Source: an uncultured Thermoplasmatales archaeon
Lineage (GTDB): Archaea; Thermoplasmatota; Thermoplasmata; Thermoplasmatales; GCA-001856825
Assembly (NCBI GenBank): GCA_964541025.1
Contig: CAZIOW010000003.1
Coordinates: 1 to 57,338, forward strand
DNA: 57,338 bases
Reading direction: 5' to 3'
The notes beneath the pieces were generated by a model. That model worked only from the letters and a program-made list of their open reading frames with translations. It had not been told where the DNA came from and did not search any database. Below are positions 16,123 through 30,962 of this stretch, in pieces; position 1 is the stretch's first letter, and each line of letters opens with the position of its first letter. The position numbers and the translations under genes were made by a program.

Positions 16123-16230
16123 TTTCATAAATGAGAGCCAAAAGAAATTTTTCCTTCTTACAAGATTGTTTTACCTGACAAACATTGCCATTTTTATGGT
16201 AATGCTGGCACTTGTGCTGAGGATGGTATT

Positions 16231-16542
16231 ATGACAGAGGATAATATAGAAATTTTGAAGAAAATAAAGGAAAAGGAAATTGAATCAGAATCAAGGCTAA
16301 GGAAGGCCAATGAGGAAGCTAAGAAGATAGTAGAAGATGCCAATCTCAGGGCATCACAGATCATAAAGAATGCAGAAGAAAATGCCAAAAAAATGTATGA
16401 GGAATACCTGAAAAAAGAAACTGAAAAACTGGAGATTGAACTGATTTCAATGAGGAAGAAATTTGATGAAGAAATTGGTAAACTACATGCAGAAGTATCT
16501 GATAAAGCAATCCAGGAAATGATGAAAATAATACTGGAGTGA
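16231..16542 (+). CDS. atpH: A-type ATP synthase subunit H
   Basis: 103-aa all-helical, highly charged ORF lying immediately upstream of atpI. Confidence 0.7.
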   Translation: MTEDNIEILKKIKEKEIESESRLRKANEEAKKIVEDANLRASQIIKNAEENAKKMYEEYLKKETEKLEIELISMRKKFDEEIGKLHAEVSDKAIQEMMKIILE

Positions 16543-16548
16543 GAATTA

Positions 16549-18486
16549 ATGCTGACCCCTTTAAAAATGATAAGAACAAGGATCATAAGCACCAAGGAGA
16601 ATGAAGAGATAATTCTCTCTGCACTGCACGACATGGGGATAATGCAGATAGAACCAGTGACAATAAGTTCAGAATATCTCAAAAGCTTAGTTCCAGGTGC
16701 ATCATATAACAGAATAAATGAAGTAGCCAGGAAGATAAGGGGTCTTGAAAATATGCTGATTCCCGTGGAGGTGAAGGAAAGGAGATCATTCCCGACGGTA
16801 GCATCGCTCATGGATGCGATTGACAGAATAGATATATTTGAACCAGCGAAAGACCTGAGAGATAAAGAAAATATTATAAAATCAAAGATGAAACTGCTAG
16901 AGATAAAGAAGAGCACGCTGGAAAAAATGGCATTTTACAGCGGGGATGTTTCATATCTGAATGGGAAAAGGGTTGTATCTTTCCTGATAAGGAACAGCGA
17001 AGATTTTAATGAAAAAATAAAATCACTGAACCCAACAGTAATAAAGGGAAATGATTATTCAATAATAATAATTGAAAAATCACTTGAAGGAAAGGCAGGT
17101 GAAATATTCAGGAATTACAGCGGAGAAGTATTATCAATTCCTGAAGAAAATGGAAAGGTAAACGATGTTATTGCCAGAATTGAGAATGAAATGAAAGAGC
17201 TCAATTCAGAATTAAATTCAGTGAATTCTGAACTTAAAAAAATATCTGAAAAATTTTATCCTGAGGTAGTTGCGATAAGGGAACAGCTAGATATTGAATT
17301 AAGGAAAATGGATGTGGTTTCTAAACTTTCTGGGACGGAAAAGACAATGGTTCTCGAGGGATGGGTTCCTGACGTTGACTTCAACCCGATGTTAAAAGTT
17401 TTAAATGATATAACAGACGGTGCTGTTATTATAGAGAAAGTGAAATCAGATGAAACTCCACCCACTGCCCTGAATAATCCAAGAAAAATCAAATTCTTCG
17501 AATTTTTCATAAGGTTCTACTCTTTACCACAGTCCACAGAAATAGATCCAACACTTGTATTCGCCCTAATATTCCCAATTTTCTTCGGGTTGATGATAGG
17601 GGATGTTGGGTACGGGGTGGTAATACTTGGGATATCCCTGTGGTTGATCCACAGGGTTGATCATCCTCCAAAAAGATCCAGGGTTCCAAAGGCAATAGGG
17701 AAATTTGTACTCAGCATGATGAGCCTCAGGAGTTTGAAAACTCTGGGAAGGGCAATGATACCTGGATCTGTAATTGCAATAGTGCTTGGAGTGCTCTTCG
17801 ACAACTATTTTGGTTTCACACTGCCATATCCTCATTTCAATGTCCTTGCAGCTGCTGGCCTGAAACTGCTTCTCTTGATAAGTGGTTACATAGGCGTCCT
17901 AATGGTAAGCGTAGGTCTTGTATTTGGCTTCATAGTAAATGCAAAGCACGGCCACAAGAAAGAGGCCATAGGAAAGATAGGCTGGCTGATGCTTGCATAC
18001 GGAATAGTCATAATAGGCCTCGGAGTCCTGAGGAGGCAGAATATAAATCCAATGGTTAATCACGTCTCTCTGATATCATTCATTCTTCTTTTCGCGGGAC
18101 TGGCTATAGTGGTTTATGCAGAGAAAGCTCAGGCCCTTCTTGAAGTGACAACCATAATAAGCCACATACTTTCATACACAAGGCTTGTAGGCATATTACT
18201 ATCATCTGTCATTCTGGCCCTTGTATTCGATGATATTTTCATGGGTACCTTAAAACACTCAATATTCATGGTCATATTTGGAATAATCATCCTCATAATA
18301 GGGCAGCTCTTGAATCTTGTAATAGCAATATTCGAACCGGGTATACAAGGTGCAAGGCTGATATATGTTGAATTCTTCAGTAAATTCTACAAGGGAAATG
18401 GTAAGGAGTTCAGGCCTTTTTCTTCACCAAGAAACTATACAATAAAACAATTCTCTTTAGAACCTCTGGATCAAAAGAAACCGTAA
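16549..18486 (+). CDS. atpI: A-type ATP synthase subunit I (stator a-subunit)
   Basis: 645-aa ORF. A soluble N-terminal half is followed by a polytopic C-terminal half containing the conserved 'SYTRL' arginine motif ('ISHILSYTRLVGILL'). Confidence 0.9.
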   Translation: MLTPLKMIRTRIISTKENEEIILSALHDMGIMQIEPVTISSEYLKSLVPGASYNRINEVARKIRGLENMLIPVEVKERRSFPTVASLMDAIDRIDIFEPAKDLRDKENIIKSKMKLLEIKKSTLEKMAFYSGDVSYLNGKRVVSFLIRNSEDFNEKIKSLNPTVIKGNDYSIIIIEKSLEGKAGEIFRNYSGEVLSIPEENGKVNDVIARIENEMKELNSELNSVNSELKKISEKFYPEVVAIREQLDIELRKMDVVSKLSGTEKTMVLEGWVPDVDFNPMLKVLNDITDGAVIIEKVKSDETPPTALNNPRKIKFFEFFIRFYSLPQSTEIDPTLVFALIFPIFFGLMIGDVGYGVVILGISLWLIHRVDHPPKRSRVPKAIGKFVLSMMSLRSLKTLGRAMIPGSVIAIVLGVLFDNYFGFTLPYPHFNVLAAAGLKLLLLISGYIGVLMVSVGLVFGFIVNAKHGHKKEAIGKIGWLMLAYGIVIIGLGVLRRQNINPMVNHVSLISFILLFAGLAIVVYAEKAQALLEVTTIISHILSYTRLVGILLSSVILALVFDDIFMGTLKHSIFMVIFGIIILIIGQLLNLVIAIFEPGIQGARLIYVEFFSKFYKGNGKEFRPFSSPRNYTIKQFSLEPLDQKKP

Positions 18487-18527
18487 TGAATTTAAACTAA
18501 TAGTTATAATGATAATTGAAATAAATT

Positions 18528-18998
18528 ATGCATCGTATAGAAAGCACCGGAGTAGGCAGCCTGCTTGGACTGATGGAGATACTTGAGGATATGGATAAAC
18601 CTGTTGATATAGCGAAGCTTGACGACTCGCTTGATGAGGAAAGAACAACTCTAATGAATCTTCTTGATGATGCGGAAAGCCTTGGATTGATATCAGTGGC
18701 AAACGGGGATGTGATAATAACGGACCTTGGAAAGAAATTCCTGAATTCAAATGTTTCCGACAGGAAGAAAATATTGAAAGAATCTTTGAAAAATGTAGAG
18801 CCTTTCAATTCAATCATCAATTATTTGAAATCTTCTGGTACTAATGAAATACAGAAGGAAGACCTTGAAAGATTCTTGGAAGATAATTTCCCATCAGGAA
18901 ATAATGAAGATATAATGAGAGTGGTACTGAACTGGGGAAGATATGCAAAATTAATGAACTATGACAGCGACGAGGGCAAGCTTATATTACTGAATTAG
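18528..18998 (+). CDS. stand-alone AAA-associated (NitT/TauT ATPase C-terminal-like) domain protein
   Basis: 156-aa ORF. 'LLGLMEIL...PVDIAKLDD...LMNLLDDAESLGLI...GDVIITDLGKKFL' resembles the domain usually fused to the C-terminus of NitT/TauT-type ABC ATPases. Recognised from memory only. Confidence 0.5.
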   Translation: MHRIESTGVGSLLGLMEILEDMDKPVDIAKLDDSLDEERTTLMNLLDDAESLGLISVANGDVIITDLGKKFLNSNVSDRKKILKESLKNVEPFNSIINYLKSSGTNEIQKEDLERFLEDNFPSGNNEDIMRVVLNWGRYAKLMNYDSDEGKLILLN

Positions 18999-21484: not shown

Positions 21485-23446
21485 TTGGACCTTAAGAAGA
21501 GTTTAAATTCAAATATAAATGCGCTCACAATGAAGGGAAATAATTTTATTAGAAGTCCATATCTTGAACTTCACAATAATGATGCCATAAAATGGAATAT
21601 CTGGACAGAAGAAATATTGAAAAAGGCCAAAAAGGAAGATAAACCTCTTTTCATATCCATTGGATATTATTCATGTCACTGGTGTCATGTAGAACAGGAA
21701 CTGTCTTTCAACGATAGTGAAATTGCCGAGGTTGTGAATGAGAAATTCATTCCTATTATAGTCGACAGGGAAGAGAGGCCCGATATAGATGACCTCTACA
21801 TGAAAGCATCGCAGATAATTAATGGATCTGGAGGATGGCCATTGAATGTTATCGCAATGCCGGACGGAAGACCATTCTTTGTATCCACATTCCTTTACCC
21901 AAGGTCATCTGGAGATCAGCCAGGCCTGCTTGAAATATTGCAGTCAGTATCTAAAATATGGAATGAGGAAAGGGGGAGAATTATAGAAACATCAGATGAA
22001 ATATTGTCACTGATTGCTAATACACCAAAATCCAAAGAAGGAAGCATATCTTATCAGGAAATCAATGAAATTATAGGGAGCATCTATGATAGAAAATACG
22101 GAGGATTTGGTTCATCTCCGAAATTTCCAAATTTCAATTATCTTCATTTTCTGATGGTTTACGACCAGTATAAAAAGAAAAATTCAAACAGAAACAAGGT
22201 TGAGAGAACAATTAGAGCGATGCTCAACGGCGGAATATATGACCATGTGGGTTCAGGCTTTCACAGATACTCAACCGATGAGAAATGGGAAATTCCGCAC
22301 TTTGAGAAGATGCTTTATGATCAAGGGTTGCTTATTGACACGCTGATCCAATTCTCTGAAACATACAAAGATCAAGTGTTCGTGAAGAGGACGGGAGACA
22401 TTTTAAATTTTCTTATGAGGGAGATGGAAATTGATGGATTATTCCTAAGCGCCATTGATTCAGATTTCAATGGAGAAGAAGGGCTATACTATCTTTGGGA
22501 CATGAGAGAAATATCCGGAATTTTGAATGAGGATGAAATAATGTATCTGAGAAATTTCTTCGATTTCAGTGTAAAATACAACGGAAAGACAGTCATAAGG
22601 AGGAGAGACGTAAGTTATTCTGAAGAGGACGATCAAAAAATAAGATATATTGTCAACAAGCTCAGAGAAGCAAGAGAGAAAAGAGGGGAAATCAGGAAGG
22701 ACGATAAGATTATTCTATCATGGAACTGCCTGACACTTAAAGCCATTATTCACTACTCCTATTATGATAATAACTACATTCCATTCTTGATAAGGGCAGT
22801 GGAAAGTATAGAAGAGAAATTCATGGATGGGAGGGATCTTTACAGGACAATGAGAAAAGGTGAAAGGGGAGTGAAAGCACAGCTGGAAGATTATGCTTAT
22901 CTTTCCGATCTCTTCCTTGAAATGTATGAACTGACAATTGATGAATCGTATCTTAATGAAGCCATAAAAATTGTAAATGATATAAAGGAAAAATTCTTTG
23001 ACCAGAATACTGGAAGTTTATTCAATACTCAAAAGGAATGGGATACATCTATAGTCAAAACAAAGGTAGAATATGATACCATATTCCCATCAGGCAAATC
23101 TTTACTTTTTTCAGTCCTGAATAAATTGTACCTACTTACTGGAATAGAGGAAATGATGGTAATGTCAAACTCCATCAAGAATGATGCAGAAACATCATTA
23201 AAGAGGAATCCAGTTTCACAGATCTCCCTTGTAACATTTATGATGGCTTCAGAAATGATATATAAAGTGGAGATCAGAGAGGAAGATGTAGCACGGTTCA
23301 AAGAGATTAGGAATGAATTAGAAAGAAGAAATTATTTCATACCAATAGTGGCAGACAACTTGAACCTTTGCAACAAAAATTCATGTCTTTCTAATTTTAA
23401 AAACGTGGAAGAGATGATAGAATACATAAAAAAATTGAGCATTTAA
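21485..23446 (+). CDS. thioredoxin-domain protein, DUF255/YyaL family
   Basis: 653-aa ORF with 'SPYLELHNNDAIKW', 'GYYSCHWCHV' and 'VDREERPDIDDLY', followed by a long alpha-toroid-like C-terminal region. The start is probably ATG 21530 rather than TTG 21485. Confidence 0.85.
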   Translation: MDLKKSLNSNINALTMKGNNFIRSPYLELHNNDAIKWNIWTEEILKKAKKEDKPLFISIGYYSCHWCHVEQELSFNDSEIAEVVNEKFIPIIVDREERPDIDDLYMKASQIINGSGGWPLNVIAMPDGRPFFVSTFLYPRSSGDQPGLLEILQSVSKIWNEERGRIIETSDEILSLIANTPKSKEGSISYQEINEIIGSIYDRKYGGFGSSPKFPNFNYLHFLMVYDQYKKKNSNRNKVERTIRAMLNGGIYDHVGSGFHRYSTDEKWEIPHFEKMLYDQGLLIDTLIQFSETYKDQVFVKRTGDILNFLMREMEIDGLFLSAIDSDFNGEEGLYYLWDMREISGILNEDEIMYLRNFFDFSVKYNGKTVIRRRDVSYSEEDDQKIRYIVNKLREAREKRGEIRKDDKIILSWNCLTLKAIIHYSYYDNNYIPFLIRAVESIEEKFMDGRDLYRTMRKGERGVKAQLEDYAYLSDLFLEMYELTIDESYLNEAIKIVNDIKEKFFDQNTGSLFNTQKEWDTSIVKTKVEYDTIFPSGKSLLFSVLNKLYLLTGIEEMMVMSNSIKNDAETSLKRNPVSQISLVTFMMASEMIYKVEIREEDVARFKEIRNELERRNYFIPIVADNLNLCNKNSCLSNFKNVEEMIEYIKKLSI

Positions 23447-23529
23447 TATTATTTTTCTTAATAATTTCAGTTCTTTGAGTAAAGATTTTAATGGACATTT
23501 CCTTATAGCTTGACATTTAGGTGGAATTG

Positions 23530-26500
23530 ATGGCTTCACTACCCAGAGCAAATAAACTATTCAGTACTGCAAGAGACATAGGAATAGAGGTCAAGACGGG
23601 CATAGTTCTTGTACTGACCTTCTTTCTATCCCTTTTTCTAAGTTCCTATTTCATCATAGGAGTTGCGATTAAGGGAAATTATGCAGTATCAGGAGGATCG
23701 GATGCTTATTACAATATGAGAATTATTCAATACATATTATCAACCCATCACCAGCTTCTGTTCGACCCTTCGCTTAATTATCCAATAGGATTGGAAAATC
23801 CGAGACCACCATTCTTCCACTGGTTTGCTGTGCTGTTAGGCTATGCTTTCTCTCCATTTCTTGGGGGAGTTTATGCCTCCACAATGACCATGTTTTTAAT
23901 GAGCACAGCTATAGGGGGTGCCCTCATAGTATTTCCAACATATTTCCTCGGTAAGGAATTATTTGGAAGGAAAGTAGGTATAATAGCGGCAATTCTTGTA
24001 GCATTATCACCATTGACCATGATGAAGAGCATTGCGACAATTGGGCTGTTTGATATATTTACTGCGCTTTTTGGATTGATGTTTATATATTATTATCTGA
24101 GGGCAGTCAATACATTCAATTTCGCATTAAGCGATAAAAGCTCTTTCTCAAATATCATATCAACGCTCAGGAAGAACCAAATATCTATAGTTTATGCATT
24201 GCTCGCTGCAGTATCTCTAGCAGCTTCTATGCTTACTTGGGACGGTTCAATTTCCCTAGTCCTTATACTTGCTGGTGCAGGTCTGGTTCAATTATTCATA
24301 TATGCAATAAGAAAGAAGAGTGCTCTTTCCATATTTACAGCGACATTATTTTTCGGTGCAGGATTCATAGTAGCTTTTCCGTGGTATTACGTTGCGGGAT
24401 TCATAGCTGTAAGGTTCGATTATCCACTGATAATATGGGGGGCTCTACTTATTTCTTCAATATATTTCATATTGTTAGAAAGGAAGTCTTGGGTACTCTC
24501 AATCTCCGTTTACATAGTAATAGCCATAGCAGCCATATTTGCAATAGATAAGATTAATCCAAACATTATACAGTCCATACTTTCTGGGCAGCATTATTTC
24601 ATAAAAAATAAAATATACAATACCATAGCTGAAGCACAGGCTTTGCCACTTGGCGAAGATATAATGGAATTTGGACCAATGCAGTTCTTTGCTTCCATCA
24701 TAGGAATTGGAGCCCTGATTTATTACTGGATAAAGAGAAAGGACTTCAACATGACGCTAGCACTTCTTTACTTCGCTGGAATTATTTTCATAAGCATGAT
24801 AGCTTCCAAATTCCTGTACTTCGGTGCCACGGCCACATCAATTCTGACAGGGCTTGTACTTGTTAGAGTATTTGAAATGCTTCAATTCAAGGAAGTAATT
24901 GAAAAATCCCGCGACAGACCGGTAAAACATATACTGAGAAAGGAATTCAAATTTGCTCATTATGTAACTATACTTATAGTGGTGTTCTTGTTGGTAGTAC
25001 CAACCACTTTTTATGCTGTTGACTCTGGGATACCATTCAATAATAAAACAACCTATGACCGTGAGATTTATAACGCAACCCCATCCATATTGAGACCGCA
25101 GAATTACACTCCACCATATTATCTAGGAGCATTTGGTGTATCTCTTGATCTTCCGAACAGTCCATGGGTCAGAGCATTGGATTGGTTTAAAAATCAGGAT
25201 ACATCACAACCTCCAGCTGACAGACCGGCCTTTGTCTCATGGTGGGATTACGGTTTTCAGACTCTTGAACAGGGTGATCATCCTGTTATGGCCGATAACT
25301 TCCAGGATGGCATTTTTCCAGCAGCCCAGATACTGATGGCGCAGAATGAGAGTCAGATAGTTTCAATTTTCATTTCAAGAATTCTTGATTATTATGTTGC
25401 AAATCACGACCTGAATAATGCAACAATAGACTCAATAATATCTCAATATCTAGGAGCGGGAGCCATGAAAAATATAACTAATTACGAATTGAATGGTTCC
25501 AATCTCATCTCCCAGATATATGCAAATCCCAGCTATTATGGACCCAGGGAGGGAATTCAGGCTGGGGATGCGAAATACATTCTTATGGAAGGGTATCTAT
25601 CAAATACATTCTCACTGAATACTCTGATAAATCTGAATACAGCGTTGGTTCAGGCAACTGGATTCAATATGAGTTATATAGCCGTGGATTACAGGCTGTT
25701 TCCATTCTCAGGAATTAACACTGGAATATTTTACGCTCCTGCCTATTTAGGGGATTATCCATATGTGGATGTGCAGGGGGAAATAGTTCCTACGACATTC
25801 TTTAATATAACTGTTACAGATGCAAGCGGCAATACCTATCCGCTGCAGGATTTCCCTCCAGGAGATACAGCGGTGAATTATTCAATAAATTATCTCCCAA
25901 TGTTTTACAATTCCACAATATACAGAATGTTCATAGGTTATCCTCCAAGCGTCGCAGGAGTAAATTCCGGAATTCCGGGAATAACCAGCAATATGCAATA
26001 TTATATCCCAATGCAGGCATGGGGCGAGCCAAACTTTGAACTTGCGTATAAAACAGTGTTCTGGAATCCCTATACAGATTATCAGAACCATACGAATGCC
26101 TGGCAACCAGTTTCACTGGAACAGGGATATTACTACCTTAAGCATAAAATTGGAACTGTGGATATGACACCTCCGGCATCTCAGGTACTACCAAGTGATG
26201 TAGTGTTTGTACAGTATTTTCCGGGAGCAATAATTCATGGCAGAGTTCTCGATACATTGGGAAAACCAATACAAGGTGTCAGGGTAACCCTGACAGACCA
26301 GTACGGAATTCCTCACGATACTGCAGTTACAAATTCATCCGGATATTATTCATTATATGCGGTAGCTGGAAATGATACCGTCACTCTATCATCTGGAAGT
26401 TACAATTCACTCTTCATGGTGGATTCAACTACACTAAATACGTTCAATATCAGCATTTCTGAATCTCAGGCAGACAGGACCAGCTATACTGCAACAGGCC

Positions 26501-29500
26501 AACCCACATGGAATATAACCCATAATTTCGTTATTGCATCACATTCAGTTACCGGAGTAACATATCTTAACCTAGCAAATACCAATTTCTTTATTCCTAA
26601 TACAGATCTATCGGTAAATGGAACCCTTGTATTCTACAACAAAACATACAAGAATGAGGTTGTTGTAAATACAACAGCCAATGGAAGTTACAGCATACCA
26701 GACATACCCCCATATTCTTACAATGTCTCAGCCTTTGTGTATGGCGAATTTTACGGTAATATTACAAATATCACTGTATCATCGTCCCAGGTATCAAAGG
26801 ATATTGCCATTCCATTTGGAAAGCTGAAGCTCAACATTTCCAACAATATTGATATGAGTGGTGAAAATTACATAACTCTAAGCAGGAATAATTTTTCAAT
26901 GAATATAAGCACTAACTCAAATAATGAAACATTAAATATCCCTGCAGGTACTTACAATCTGCTCGCGAAAAAGGGAACGTATTCCGATAACATTTCTGTG
27001 AGTGTCGCCCAGAATGGAAATAGCAGTTATACAATTGAATATACGAAATATTACGATCTGAAAATTGCGACATATGTGAACGGACAACCCGTTCAATCTG
27101 CTATTAAGTTTGAAAATGAATTGAATTACAGTCAGTCTGGAGTTTTATTCTCAAATCAGGCTGGAATCCTATCCACAAATCTTACAGCATCTGTTTATTC
27201 AATTTACATAAATGCTTTTTATGATGGGCAGCATTATTCTTATCTCGAACTGTTAAATATTTCAAATAACATGGATCAGAGGATTAATCTTCTTCCCGCC
27301 ACCTTAGTAAAGGGAACAGTCGTGTACAATGGCCAAGCAGCCGCACTCTCGCCTGTAGATATTTTTAATCAAAGTGGGCTTCTGCAGATAGTTTCAAACT
27401 CTACTGGCTTCTATTCAGTTTATCTGCCAAATGGAGAATACAGGTTCTACTCATATTTCACCCTTAATTCTTCGCTTTATGTTGCATCTGATGTTTATTA
27501 TGTATCCGGTTATGTTGATAACATAAGCCTTCAGGGATTGCCCGGATACACATATGTAGGAAACGTATCATATAACAGTCAGACCGTTAAAGGCCTTGCA
27601 GTTGCAATTGTTGATAACCAGCCCTACTTTGAGTACCCTGTTACGACTGGAGAGAAGTACAACCTATTCCTTCCAGATGGTGTGGCTCCTCAGTATGTGA
27701 ATTATATTGCACCCGGCTATTCTGTCAGCAGCATCAACAGTAAGAATATATCTCTGAAGCTTCTTCCTGTGAATGTCACAGTGGAAATGAATTATACAGG
27801 TGACTATAAAATAACAATGATAATGTCCGGGGCGCAGAACTATGAACTCAACGTTTCCCATATTATGAATATCAGCGTGCTCCCAGGAGTATACAAGATA
27901 TCATTCAGGGCCGATAATCTATCTGTGACATCTTCAATAAATGAAATCGGGATCCAGTCTGTTCTCAACGGGCAGTACATTTCAATTGACCTTACACTGA
28001 AGGCAATGCTATTTGTCGGAACTGGGGGGATTGTGGAAATATTCAGTGGGAAAAATTTGGTATCATCCTCTCCAATGTCTTTCCTTCCACCTGGAAATTA
28101 CACGATATATGAGGTTTCGAATGGCATGGCTGCAATTGAAAATATTAATCTATTTGAGAATACAACAGTATACCCGGTACTTCAGCAGGCATATTTAGTT
28201 AGCGTAAATTCAAATATAAATTCTAAAATAATGATAAGCTCCCAATACGGCTCAATATATTGGAGTCAGTTGCAGGGTTATCTGCCTGCTGGCTTTTACA
28301 ACTTCTCCGTAAGCACCTACCTCAATAGTTCCTTTGAATTTTATGCCTCGTATTCTGCTTACATCTCTTCAAACTCCAATATATTCCTAAATGCAACAGT
28401 TAAGGAGCTGAAATCACAGATATATCTTAACTCATATGTGAATGGGACATTAGTTTCAGGAGCCAGATATATAGTCCAGGGACCCGAGAATGCCAGTGGG
28501 ATAGTTACAAGGAATCCACTCACTCTAAGATATGGGTTGTACGCATTGTACATTAATTATGGCAGCAACTCTTTCATAGGATATATGAACGTCAATTCTC
28601 AGAGACTATACCTTAATATCACGTTACAAAGGGCTTATCCCCTATCTTATGGTACCTATCTCAATAATTCAAGCTACAGCGGGAATATTGCAATAGAAGG
28701 CAAGATTAATTTTGCCATTCCATCTTCTGGTATAATTTACCTTCCAAATGGAACATACAATTTCACCGGATCAGCGAAGGGTATTTATTATGGCACAATA
28801 AACAATTATTCCTTCGTACAGCCGGTAACGGTAAATGGAATATCATCTGCTACTTTTGATCTCGAAATAAATCAGAATGTCAAGGTAAGTCTGATCTCAA
28901 TGGCGGGAAGCCCAACCATTTCACCTAACCAGAATTACAGTTTCCCGCTCATCATTCAGAGCAATTCAAACATACCGCTAACATTCACAATTGAAAATGC
29001 TTCCAACTTTGAAATCTCTGGAGCATCTATGACACTTCTACCTCATTCAAATGGGGTTGATACAGTATACATAAAAGTTCCAGCCGGCCAGCCAAGTGGC
29101 AGCTACTCACTTGATGTGAGAGTCATGTATGCTTCCACTTATCAGGATATTTACGTTAATGTAACTGTGCCGACTATCAATAATATAGAGATTGCAGTTA
29201 ATGATACCAGCGGCAGGATAGCGAATGGAGCTGTTTATTTGCCACTTAAAATAACCAATGCTGGTAATTCCAACATGAATGTCACGCTATCAATACTGAA
29301 TTCACCATATCTTATAAAAACAGGTCTGAACGTAACAATTGATGGAATGAATTATTATAATATCACCCTGAAACCATCAAATTTCAATAACACGACACTC
29401 GTCATAAAAGGATCATCTGTAAATGATATAAATGGTGCCACAATTTATGTGGCAGTCAACTACATGAACTATAGCAAGGTGATAAAGGTAGTACCTTCAT

Positions 29501-29658
29501 TACCAGCATTGTCCATTAAATATGCAAATGTTCAGGGAACAGGGCTTCAGAACTTTTCTGCCACTGTACAGGACTATTATATTTACGGTTTCTCAGCATT
29601 CATAGTGCTTGCAGTAGGAATTTCTATGATTCTTTTCAGGAGGCGAGCAAGGGCATGA
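23530..29658 (+). CDS. aglB: giant AglB/STT3 oligosaccharyltransferase fused to a sequon-rich multi-domain ectodomain with a C-terminal TM anchor
   Basis: Uninterrupted ORF. From GTG 23521 it is 2045 aa, but ATG 23530 is preceded by 'AGGTGG' and is the likelier start. Motifs found: 'SDAYYNMR', 'TIAE' and 'WWDYG' (25240-25254). There is a CarboxypepD_reg-like module from about 26233 and a terminal TM helix plus 'RRRARA'. Confidence 0.9.
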   Translation: MASLPRANKLFSTARDIGIEVKTGIVLVLTFFLSLFLSSYFIIGVAIKGNYAVSGGSDAYYNMRIIQYILSTHHQLLFDPSLNYPIGLENPRPPFFHWFAVLLGYAFSPFLGGVYASTMTMFLMSTAIGGALIVFPTYFLGKELFGRKVGIIAAILVALSPLTMMKSIATIGLFDIFTALFGLMFIYYYLRAVNTFNFALSDKSSFSNIISTLRKNQISIVYALLAAVSLAASMLTWDGSISLVLILAGAGLVQLFIYAIRKKSALSIFTATLFFGAGFIVAFPWYYVAGFIAVRFDYPLIIWGALLISSIYFILLERKSWVLSISVYIVIAIAAIFAIDKINPNIIQSILSGQHYFIKNKIYNTIAEAQALPLGEDIMEFGPMQFFASIIGIGALIYYWIKRKDFNMTLALLYFAGIIFISMIASKFLYFGATATSILTGLVLVRVFEMLQFKEVIEKSRDRPVKHILRKEFKFAHYVTILIVVFLLVVPTTFYAVDSGIPFNNKTTYDREIYNATPSILRPQNYTPPYYLGAFGVSLDLPNSPWVRALDWFKNQDTSQPPADRPAFVSWWDYGFQTLEQGDHPVMADNFQDGIFPAAQILMAQNESQIVSIFISRILDYYVANHDLNNATIDSIISQYLGAGAMKNITNYELNGSNLISQIYANPSYYGPREGIQAGDAKYILMEGYLSNTFSLNTLINLNTALVQATGFNMSYIAVDYRLFPFSGINTGIFYAPAYLGDYPYVDVQGEIVPTTFFNITVTDASGNTYPLQDFPPGDTAVNYSINYLPMFYNSTIYRMFIGYPPSVAGVNSGIPGITSNMQYYIPMQAWGEPNFELAYKTVFWNPYTDYQNHTNAWQPVSLEQGYYYLKHKIGTVDMTPPASQVLPSDVVFVQYFPGAIIHGRVLDTLGKPIQGVRVTLTDQYGIPHDTAVTNSSGYYSLYAVAGNDTVTLSSGSYNSLFMVDSTTLNTFNISISESQADRTSYTATGQPTWNITHNFVIASHSVTGVTYLNLANTNFFIPNTDLSVNGTLVFYNKTYKNEVVVNTTANGSYSIPDIPPYSYNVSAFVYGEFYGNITNITVSSSQVSKDIAIPFGKLKLNISNNIDMSGENYITLSRNNFSMNISTNSNNETLNIPAGTYNLLAKKGTYSDNISVSVAQNGNSSYTIEYTKYYDLKIATYVNGQPVQSAIKFENELNYSQSGVLFSNQAGILSTNLTASVYSIYINAFYDGQHYSYLELLNISNNMDQRINLLPATLVKGTVVYNGQAAALSPVDIFNQSGLLQIVSNSTGFYSVYLPNGEYRFYSYFTLNSSLYVASDVYYVSGYVDNISLQGLPGYTYVGNVSYNSQTVKGLAVAIVDNQPYFEYPVTTGEKYNLFLPDGVAPQYVNYIAPGYSVSSINSKNISLKLLPVNVTVEMNYTGDYKITMIMSGAQNYELNVSHIMNISVLPGVYKISFRADNLSVTSSINEIGIQSVLNGQYISIDLTLKAMLFVGTGGIVEIFSGKNLVSSSPMSFLPPGNYTIYEVSNGMAAIENINLFENTTVYPVLQQAYLVSVNSNINSKIMISSQYGSIYWSQLQGYLPAGFYNFSVSTYLNSSFEFYASYSAYISSNSNIFLNATVKELKSQIYLNSYVNGTLVSGARYIVQGPENASGIVTRNPLTLRYGLYALYINYGSNSFIGYMNVNSQRLYLNITLQRAYPLSYGTYLNNSSYSGNIAIEGKINFAIPSSGIIYLPNGTYNFTGSAKGIYYGTINNYSFVQPVTVNGISSATFDLEINQNVKVSLISMAGSPTISPNQNYSFPLIIQSNSNIPLTFTIENASNFEISGASMTLLPHSNGVDTVYIKVPAGQPSGSYSLDVRVMYASTYQDIYVNVTVPTINNIEIAVNDTSGRIANGAVYLPLKITNAGNSNMNVTLSILNSPYLIKTGLNVTIDGMNYYNITLKPSNFNNTTLVIKGSSVNDINGATIYVAVNYMNYSKVIKVVPSLPALSIKYANVQGTGLQNFSATVQDYYIYGFSAFIVLAVGISMILFRRRARA

Positions 29659-30419: not shown

Positions 30420-30962
30420 TCACATTATTTTATCACTCATTGCTATATTAATTGCTGCTTCCCAATCATTACCTCTTTTTATTGTTTTTGAACTACCTTT
30501 TTCATTTACAAGAAAGTAGTGAAACCCCCTCAGCGCCTTTATTATTTTATCCCTGTTCATTCTGTCTCCGTTTCCAACCTTAATTTTGAAATCTTTGTAT
30601 CTGCACTGGCTGTGAACATCCTCAACATATTTCCTGATCTCCTCAAAATTGTATATGTTTCTTTTATCTATGACATAATTATCGGCCAGAGTTGCAATAC
30701 CTGGAGTTGGCCCGGGATCAATACCTACAACTATTTCTTTTGTGTTCGATTTATATATGACCTGCCTGATCCTGAACTCATCAGATCCGTCTGTAACAAT
30801 TACATTTTTCTCTTCAATGAACTCATCAGAAAAAACAATATCATATGCCTTGAGATCGGCACCTTCTGTAATGGAAGAAAATGGGATTTCCATCTTCTTG
30901 AAAAGGGATATCATCCTGTAATAAACCCTGAAATTTTTTGTGTAAATGGCAATCCTCAACAT
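30420..30962 (-). CDS. hypothetical protein with a possible YqgF/RuvX-like RNase H-fold domain
   Basis: 180-aa ORF. 'VVGIDPGPTPGIATL', 'KVGNGD', 'VNEKGSSKT' and 'DWEAAINIA' echo the RuvX motifs G.D.G...G.A, VDE..TT and D..AA..I. This is a weak call made by eye. Confidence 0.35.
   Translation of the reverse strand: MLRIAIYTKNFRVYYRMISLFKKMEIPFSSITEGADLKAYDIVFSDEFIEEKNVIVTDGSDEFRIRQVIYKSNTKEIVVGIDPGPTPGIATLADNYVIDKRNIYNFEEIRKYVEDVHSQCRYKDFKIKVGNGDRMNRDKIIKALRGFHYFLVNEKGSSKTIKRGNDWEAAINIAMSDKIM

Follow-up and report, generated by a model that had tools for sequence, protein, structure and literature searches.

The DNA considered here is a 57,338-nt stretch from an uncultured Thermoplasmatales archaeon (contig CAZIOW010000003.1, assembly GCA_964541025.1), referred to in its entirety as the window. 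It encodes a giant member of the AglB/STT3 family of oligosaccharyltransferases (OSTs) and, directly downstream, a small membrane protein with a CARDB domain (Table 1). The giant protein joins a catalytic core and the canonical globular domain of AglB to an extension, hereafter the arm, made of some thirteen beta-sandwiches and closed by a second membrane anchor. As far as sequence comparison can tell, this is the standard AglB across Thermoplasmatota and not a one-off fusion. It is probably an ordinary functional N-OST in its phylum-wide form, in which the arm is a structural module and not a second catalytic or substrate module.

The gene is a single open frame that runs without internal stop from GTG 23521 or ATG 23530 to 29658 on the forward strand, 2,042 codons being free of stops despite a GC content of 39%. 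ATG 23530 is the likelier start than the in-frame GTG because of the GGTGG that precedes it. Hydropathy places about 13 transmembrane (TM) segments within amino acids (aa) 1-500 and one more at aa 2018-2036, followed by RRRARA; AlphaFold2 predicts the terminal helix at aa 2011-2041. A preliminary description of the window, made from the letters alone, had outlined an AglB/STT3 enzyme on one uninterrupted open reading frame (ORF), with the motifs GGSDAYYNMR, NTIAEAQ and WWDYG, a soluble domain after the core, a carboxypeptidase-regulatory-like sandwich, and a fused beta-sandwich ectodomain of more than 1,100 aa anchored at both ends, lastly by a TM helix and RRRARA. This outline holds. No stop occurs between the start and 29658, and the three motifs sit where they had been placed. 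The soluble domain is the canonical globular domain and reaches to about aa 898, the sandwich is matched by Pfam PF13620 at aa 901-960, and hydropathy and AlphaFold2 agree on the doubly anchored ectodomain and on the final helix with its basic tail.

Table 1. Coordinates of the giant AglB gene, its motifs and domains, and the partner gene in the window
Feature	Position (nt)	Strand	Residues (aa)	Basis
Shine-Dalgarno-like GGTGG	23520..23524	+		read from sequence; 5 nt 5' of ATG 23530
Giant AglB gene, 2,042 codons plus stop	23530..29658	+		uninterrupted ORF; full-length homologues at 26-86% identity in >250 clusters
Catalytic core, 13-TM GT-C	23530..25029	+	1-500	hydropathy, AlphaFold2, Foldseek
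GGSD, first acidic motif; D58 the presumed metal/acceptor-binding Asp	23692..23703	+		alignment to A. fulgidus AglB-L
GGSDAYYNMR	23692-23721	+	55-64	
TIAE (TIXE motif, external loop 5), E368	24622..24633	+	365-368	alignments
NTIAEAQ	24619-24639	+	364-370	
WWDYG motif	25240..25254	+	571-575	invariant columns in alignments
Canonical extracytoplasmic AglB globular domain, 10 sequons	25030..26223	+	501-898	structural alignment, phmmer
D1, CarboxypepD_reg (transthyretin-like) beta-sandwich	26224..26484	+	899-985	Pfam PF13620
D2-D11, about ten transthyretin/prealbumin-like beta-sandwiches (boundaries approximate)	26485..28905	+	986-1792	AlphaFold2, motifs
D12-D13, two CARDB/NEW3-like beta-sandwiches	28906..29499	+	1793-1990	AlphaFold2 strands, NxGN motif
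Low-confidence linker, sequon NFS at aa 2008	29500..29559	+	1991-2010	pLDDT <50, model residues 1119-1131
C-terminal TM helix (aa 2011-2036) and cytoplasmic RRRARA tail	29560..29655	+		hydropathy, AlphaFold2
Partner gene, 253 aa	29655..30416	+		ATGA overlap with the AglB stop; translation

Only the unusual length hints at an artefact, in which a conventional AglB would have been run together with a separate surface-protein gene through a chimeric assembly, a frameshift or an overlooked stop. However, the continuous architecture, including the junction motif YYPGAI and the first arm domain (D1), recurs across hundreds of assemblies of independent origin as well as in complete genomes. D1, which directly follows the junction at about aa 898, is moreover the best-conserved stretch in distant homologues, and the long stop-free frame at 39% GC also weighs against such an origin. 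An assembly or frameshift artefact is therefore ruled out by conservation across hundreds of assemblies, and the likelihood left to it is negligible.

The oligosaccharyltransferase core and its spread

Profile and structure searches converge on the identity of the core. Pfam STT3 matches with 50.4 bits (cut-off 24.5), and NCBIfam archaeo_STT3 covers aa 26-640 (E 8.5e-55). Among NCBIfam models, the 'archaeosortase A system-associated' STT3 subfamily fits the core best; the narrower subfamily TIGR04154 scores 186.5, far under its cut-off of 450. With phmmer, AglB-L of A. fulgidus (AfAglB-L) is matched at E 2.6e-13, D58 falling on D47 of its GGND motif and TIAE on TIAE, and the isolated AglB C-terminal domains 3vgp and 3vu0 are matched as well. 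The AlphaFold2 model of aa 1-900 (pLDDT 88, pTM 0.83) has AfAglB-L 7e9s/3wak as its top Foldseek match (E 2e-20, TMq 0.57), followed by STT3A/B and PglB. In family alignments of 17 and 66 sequences, no variation is seen at D58, T365, E368 or WWDYG and almost none at I366; WWDYG was also found in all 120 homologues inspected. The protein is thus an AglB/STT3 OST bearing every sequence signature that can be checked, and glycan transfer is predicted from these signatures.

AglB-L of A. fulgidus and Pyrococcus (868-970 aa, GT66/STT3) is the best match of the window protein both by sequence and by fold. The two share the 13-TM GT-C core, the first acidic motif, the TIXE and WWDYG motifs and the globular domain. 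The window protein, in contrast, is more than twice as long and has about 13 extra beta-sandwiches, a 14th TM helix and an obligate downstream partner gene. The 'long' AglB was structurally defined as a protein of 868 aa, and in described AglBs the additions go no further than the peripheral units P1 and P2 (PMC3703281).

The giant form is widespread. A search of 5.8 billion protein clusters with the window protein as query gave 137 matches at E <= 1e-5, and a second search with a Thermoplasmataceae member as query gave 281 at E <= 1e-50. Nearly all of the 120 matches listed from each search are 2.0-2.8 kaa long, and those of the first search (2,020-2,760 aa) cover the whole query. The architecture, at roughly 2.0-2.2 kaa, recurs in more than 250 protein clusters. 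When one genome per species was scanned, at least 583 of these genomes proved to contain a relative; every one of the 80 best belongs to Thermoplasmatota, and they comprise I-plasma, DHVE2/Aciduliprofundum, Cuniculiplasma, Ferroplasma, Methanomassiliicoccales and many metagenome-assembled genomes (MAGs). Among the cultured carriers are T. volcanium (TVG1271204, 2,076 aa), Oxyplasma meridianum (2,113 aa), Caldiplasma and Cuniculiplasma (homologues of 2,111 aa). Full-length members have WWDYG near position 570-600, and essentially all end in a C-terminal TM helix and a basic tail.

The preliminary description had tentatively tied the extension to a lineage with a reduced or absent wall. The architecture is peculiar neither to this genome nor to wall-less lineages, being equally standard in DHVE2/Aciduliprofundum and Methanomassiliicoccales. 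As to its novelty, the extension proves routine in the clade and is automatically annotated as STT3, AglB or 'carboxypeptidase regulatory-like', and database names are inconsistent ('GT39', 'peptide transporter', 'carboxypeptidase regulatory-like', 'hypothetical'). The other half of the claim, that no described AglB was known to have this architecture, stands: a literature search that did not cover subscription journals found neither a published account nor a characterisation of a 2-kaa AglB. Papers on Thermoplasmatales note AglB merely as present (PMC3750248, PMC5155288, PMC10354927). The form is therefore present in databases and apparently undescribed.

Two departures from the usual pattern were seen. 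In P0363 (Acidiplasma sp., 1,425 aa), P0364 and P0209 (1,442 aa), the arm is about half as long and the C-terminal TM helix and basic tail are kept; judged by eye, a CARDB-like module with NxGN apparently precedes the helix. The MAG SRP271791_co2_51 has two matches (L010 versus L005), a full-length copy at 48% identity and a contig-end fragment at 65% (aa 1-697), which could represent a second paralogue or a mixed bin.

Domains, conservation and sequons of the arm

D1 is matched by CarboxypepD_reg with 53.8 bits (E 2.6e-14, cut-off 32.3). In the AlphaFold2 model of aa 880-2042 (pLDDT 86), the protein is all-beta up to the terminal helix. Motifs of the (L)PxGxY type recur along the arm and, together with the strand patterns, divide it into D1, about ten transthyretin-like sandwiches and two CARDB-like sandwiches, the last pair carrying a conserved NxGN at aa 1910. 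The CARDB/NEW3 character previously attributed to the final modules finds no direct confirmation in the window protein: a Pfam scan finds neither PF07705 nor PF10633 on these two domains of the window protein at E <= 1, and the matches to both families come from homologues, a minority of which match CARDB, NPCBM_assoc and FixG_C. Over 40 homologous extensions, Pfam returns beta-sandwich families only and no enzyme or lectin family. CarboxypepD_reg is found in all 40, DUF1416 in 23, NOMO_5th in 15, SdrD_B and bMG3 in 14 each and NOMO1-like_9th in three.

Conservation along the protein is uneven. Identity to distant homologues is 43% in D1, 39% in the globular domain and 32% in the TM core, which places D1, at the level of sequence, on a par with the enzyme core. 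In D2-D13, identity is 16-23% and gaps amount to 0-5%. For nearly all listed full-length homologues the extension measures about 1,130-1,290 aa, and in a few it is longer, up to about 1,730 aa. This retention of the domain count while the sequence is free to vary suggests a structural module of set length, exposed outside the cell.

The extension occurs only fused to AglB. An exhaustive HMMER scan with the extension against 1.84 billion representative proteins gave 187 matches, most of them in proteins above 2,000 aa with the match beginning near residue 900. Stand-alone extension proteins were sought among the shorter matches, and all six that were inspected lack a signal peptide and begin within the globular domain of AglB; for both reasons they are taken to be truncated AglB gene calls. 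The notion of a substrate captured by fusion consequently finds no support, as no free-standing homologue of the extension emerged. A specific structural relative of the arm was looked for with Foldseek against the PDB, and generic multi-sandwich proteins alone were returned, at TM-scores below 0.13.

The C-terminus of the window protein, ...QDYYIYGFSAFIVLAVGISMILFRRRARA, was considered as an archaeosortase signal. Substrates of the PGF-CTERM/archaeosortase A system likewise have a C-terminal TM helix followed by a basic tail, but the window protein lacks the PGF motif (...YYIYGFSAFIV...) and matches no PGF-CTERM model, Loki-CTERM being the sole match at E 0.39. The signal was accordingly rejected. 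The C-terminus of P0111, a distant homologue of 2,357 aa from a Thermoplasmata MAG, reads MPGFEALGLVSSLAAAALLLGRRRRWAG and resembles a PGF-CTERM archaeosortase signal. Going by this sequence, some lineages may convert the second anchor into a lipid anchor by processing.

The protein contains 68 Asn-X-Ser/Thr sequons, three in aa 1-520, ten in aa 521-900 and 55 in aa 901-2042. The 65 that lie past the core, about one per 24 residues, agree with the 65-70 of the preliminary description. Composition-preserving shuffles of the extension yield 23.5 +/- 4 sequons against the observed 55 (z about 8), and enrichment over composition is generally of the order of z 7-8. In 16 homologues at 35-60% identity, 48% of extension sequons are matched by a sequon in the same alignment column versus a background of 4.8%, and Asn is conserved in 54% of cases within sequons versus 28.5% for other Asn residues. 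At least half of these homologues retain 28 of the 55 sequons, and the D1 sequon N948 is retained in 82% of distant homologues. Selection thus acts on the extension sequons, and their positional conservation means that the arm is very probably N-glycosylated at many sites.

Sequons that are dense, enriched over composition and positionally conserved are also what would be seen if the enzyme were fused to a dedicated substrate, the arm then serving wall-less Thermoplasmata as a self-made coat or glycocalyx in lieu of a wall. Of this earlier proposal, the fusion is real and the glycosylation very probable. The substrate part fares less well when densities are compared across 63 loci, where arm sequon density follows that of the partner protein (rho 0.74) and of the AglB globular domain (rho 0.85), as opposed to neighbouring ORFs (rho 0.07). 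In the window itself, there are 4.86 sequons per 100 aa in the arm, 4.35 in the partner, 2.54 in the globular domain and 0.52 in other ORFs. The whole architecture is equally kept in lineages whose arm density drops to about 0.6-1.5 sequons per 100 aa (for example L037, L045, L066, L051 and L068), at or close to the level of neighbouring genes. In Methanomassiliicoccales-type and some other loci it is about 0.6-1.1, against a cytoplasmic background of about 1. Since arm density tracks both partner and globular domain, sequon saturation is read as a lineage-wide property of exposed protein, strongest in acidophiles, and not the reason for the arm's existence. The presence of the fusion in DHVE2/Aciduliprofundum and Methanomassiliicoccales, and the failure to find a free-standing ancestor of the arm among the 1.84 billion representatives, also tell against a dedicated substrate.

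The coupled CARDB protein and the likeness to NOMO

The 253-aa product of the partner gene has the layout of a type-I membrane protein: a signal peptide, Ig-like and CARDB domains, 11 sequons, a C-terminal TM helix and a ...PKWKK tail. CARDB is detected at E 2.8e-4 in the window's partner protein and in 46 of 47 orthologues. Of 62 loci with a complete giant AglB, 61 have an ORF of about 255 aa after the gene, DHVE2 and Methanomassiliicoccales included, and this is the only conserved neighbour. In most of the 61, the distance from the AglB stop to its start is between -4 and +5 nt, usually with the same 4-nt overlap as in the window. Among the orthologues in L001-L080, in most lineages the tail ...PKWKK (or PKWKR/PKWRK) forms the very C-terminus, and an RRRR-type tail takes its place in high-GC lineages. 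No partner gene lies beside P0119, a short relative of 1,194 aa. The coupling at 61 of 62 loci, the CARDB domain in the orthologues and the lack of a partner beside P0119 together argue for a two-gene unit of giant AglB and CARDB protein. P0119 was also considered as one half of a split AglB/arm pair, and this was rejected: the downstream gene encodes a GT4 glycosyltransferase on the opposite strand.

A profile of the 40 extensions, compared with the sequences of solved structures in the PDB, finds as its best match NOMO2 of the eukaryotic translocon-associated BOS complex (E 3e-17). Both NOMO and the arm string together prealbumin/CarboxypepD_reg-like domains, about 12 of them in NOMO, on the membrane face away from the cytoplasm, and in NOMO a single TM helix forms the C-terminus. 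Unlike the arm, NOMO is not joined to STT3: it is an independent protein that has a signal peptide and binds Nicalin/TMEM147. A published account gives it 12 prealbumin-like domains and a proposed role as a spacer between sheets of the endoplasmic reticulum (PMC11186639). Five stretches of NOMO2 fall mostly on the same profile region, positions 164-356. The likeness is therefore one of domain type and, given this overlap, is not collinear with the roughly 12-domain NOMO chain. NOMO is absent from the top 50 Foldseek matches of the extension model, and homology of arm and NOMO beyond the shared domain type is at most putative.

These observations bear on the suggestion that arm and CARDB protein are built-in accessory subunits, analogous to the lumenal beta-sandwich subunits of OST or to translocon NOMO. 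Such subunits might tether the enzyme to SecYEG/YidC. Alternatively, they might bind exported chains that have yet to fold and survey them. The NOMO2 match with its similar domain chain, the conservation of D1 to the same degree as the catalytic core, and the obligate partner, a translationally coupled type-I membrane protein whose cytoplasmic tail ...PKWKK is conserved, would all fit. However, the resemblance to NOMO goes no further than domain type, and D2-D13 evolve too fast for a conserved docking surface. The partner was tried as a homologue of a eukaryotic OST subunit and rejected: its profile finds CARDB-like and Ig domains among PDB sequences, with no eukaryotic OST subunit, and its Ribophorin_II_2nd match (E 0.03) is below threshold and at noise level. 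A platform of the kind found around eukaryotic OST is, by this analogy, improbable and a weaker alternative than a structural role.

Function at the cell surface and neighbouring genes

Some evidence on expression and surface context comes from related species. In the proteome of C. divulgatum, an 'Oligosaccharyltransferase AglB' (CSP5_1323), not confirmed as the 2.1-kaa form, was seen with 43 peptides and is among the top proteins by peptide count. Its normalised abundance is moderate, at about 2-4 versus 45-55 for the thermosome. Cryo-electron tomography of C. divulgatum and O. meridianum revealed a dense, unordered exterior layer of about 20 nm, probably of glycoprotein and with unassigned components, in place of a surface layer (S-layer) (PMC12448462).

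Both the layer, in organisms whose genera or species carry the giant AglB, and the high peptide count lend something to the idea of a dedicated substrate that coats the cell. An abundance of 2-4 against 45-55 is, however, moderate for a main coat protein. The archaeal S-layer and surface glycoproteins of thermoacidophiles (for example the S. acidocaldarius S-layer protein and those of T. acidophilum) share with the arm an Asn/Ser/Thr-rich, sequon-dense and beta-rich composition and a C-terminal anchor. Unlike them, the arm is covalently part of an enzyme, is doubly anchored and persists as an architecture where sequons are sparse, and AglB abundance is moderate in the related species. When these points are joined to the co-variation of sequon densities, an enzyme fused to its own substrate is an unlikely explanation. 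Of low probability, too, is the idea that arm and CARDB partner are building blocks of the 20-nm exterior layer on Thermoplasmatales without an S-layer, together with the related idea that the arm is an archaeal counterpart of the NOMO spacer joined to an STT3 homologue.

The reading preferred here remains that of an ordinary, functional AglB with a structural arm, and a role of the arm as spacer, shield or scaffold in the surface layer appears most plausible. The core would act like that of characterised AglBs and transfer the lipid-linked glycan to Asn-X-Ser/Thr sites in exported proteins. The extension would lie outside the cell, pinned to the membrane at both ends, and would be heavily N-glycosylated like all exposed proteins of these acidophiles, either in cis or by neighbouring AglB molecules. 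It would act as a NOMO-like arm or arch of fixed length that spaces, shields or organises the enzyme in the cell-surface protein layer, probably working with the co-translated 253-aa type-I CARDB membrane protein, with which a physical interaction is presumed.

Several points weigh against this reading. The role as a structural spacer is deduced from the absence of anything else and from the pattern of conservation. Acidiplasma-type proteins, of 1,425-1,442 aa overall, have a shortened arm, so a fixed length is not absolutely required. The pTM of the extension model is 0.47, and the arrangement of the domains, whether rod, arch or compact, is not fixed by it. Lastly, the second acidic motif, D161/H163 in AfAglB, appears cut to a single Asp in this clade. 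In the corresponding region (aa 168-186, nt about 24031-24087), the window clade has 'GLFDIF' with the lone D175, most distant homologues have 'ADHD' and the Thermoplasma/Cuniculiplasma type has 'SDGRMHTPE', in an alignment whose register is uncertain. With one Asp left in this motif, full catalytic competence is likely but not proven.

Textbook archaeal N-glycosylation relies on a single-subunit AglB of 600-1,000 aa. The present comparison suggests that a whole phylum, including the classic wall-less acidophiles Thermoplasma, Cuniculiplasma and Oxyplasma, uses an AglB of 2,000-2,200 aa that is extended by about 13 domains and a further anchor and accompanied by an obligate partner gene, and that archaeal OST can be a multi-component surface machine. 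The giant AglB is also a concrete candidate component of these cells' exterior protein layer. If it does belong to the coat, a glycosylation enzyme would double as an arch, covered in glycans and anchored at both ends, that determines how thick the coat is. As Cuniculiplasma, Oxyplasma and Thermoplasma are in culture, they offer a tractable system for the role of long prealbumin-like chains, such as that of NOMO, beside an oligosaccharyltransferase.

Other genes near these loci were noted in passing. In the locus of P0119 (L081), an 852-aa ORF without a Pfam match lies nearby at 16182-18740 on the reverse strand. Directly upstream of AglB in the window, positions 21485-23446 (forward strand) encode a 653-aa DUF255/thioredoxin-like protein (Thioredox_DsbH), which keeps this position only in the closest relatives (six loci). 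Convergent with the AglB operon, a 180-aa ORF at 30420-30962 on the reverse strand has a 'GIDPGPTPGIA' motif and a weak match to DUF460 (E 0.0036). A similar convergent ORF occurs nearby in 39 of 80 related loci, usually just past the partner gene, and its product is probably cytoplasmic with an RNase-H-like fold.

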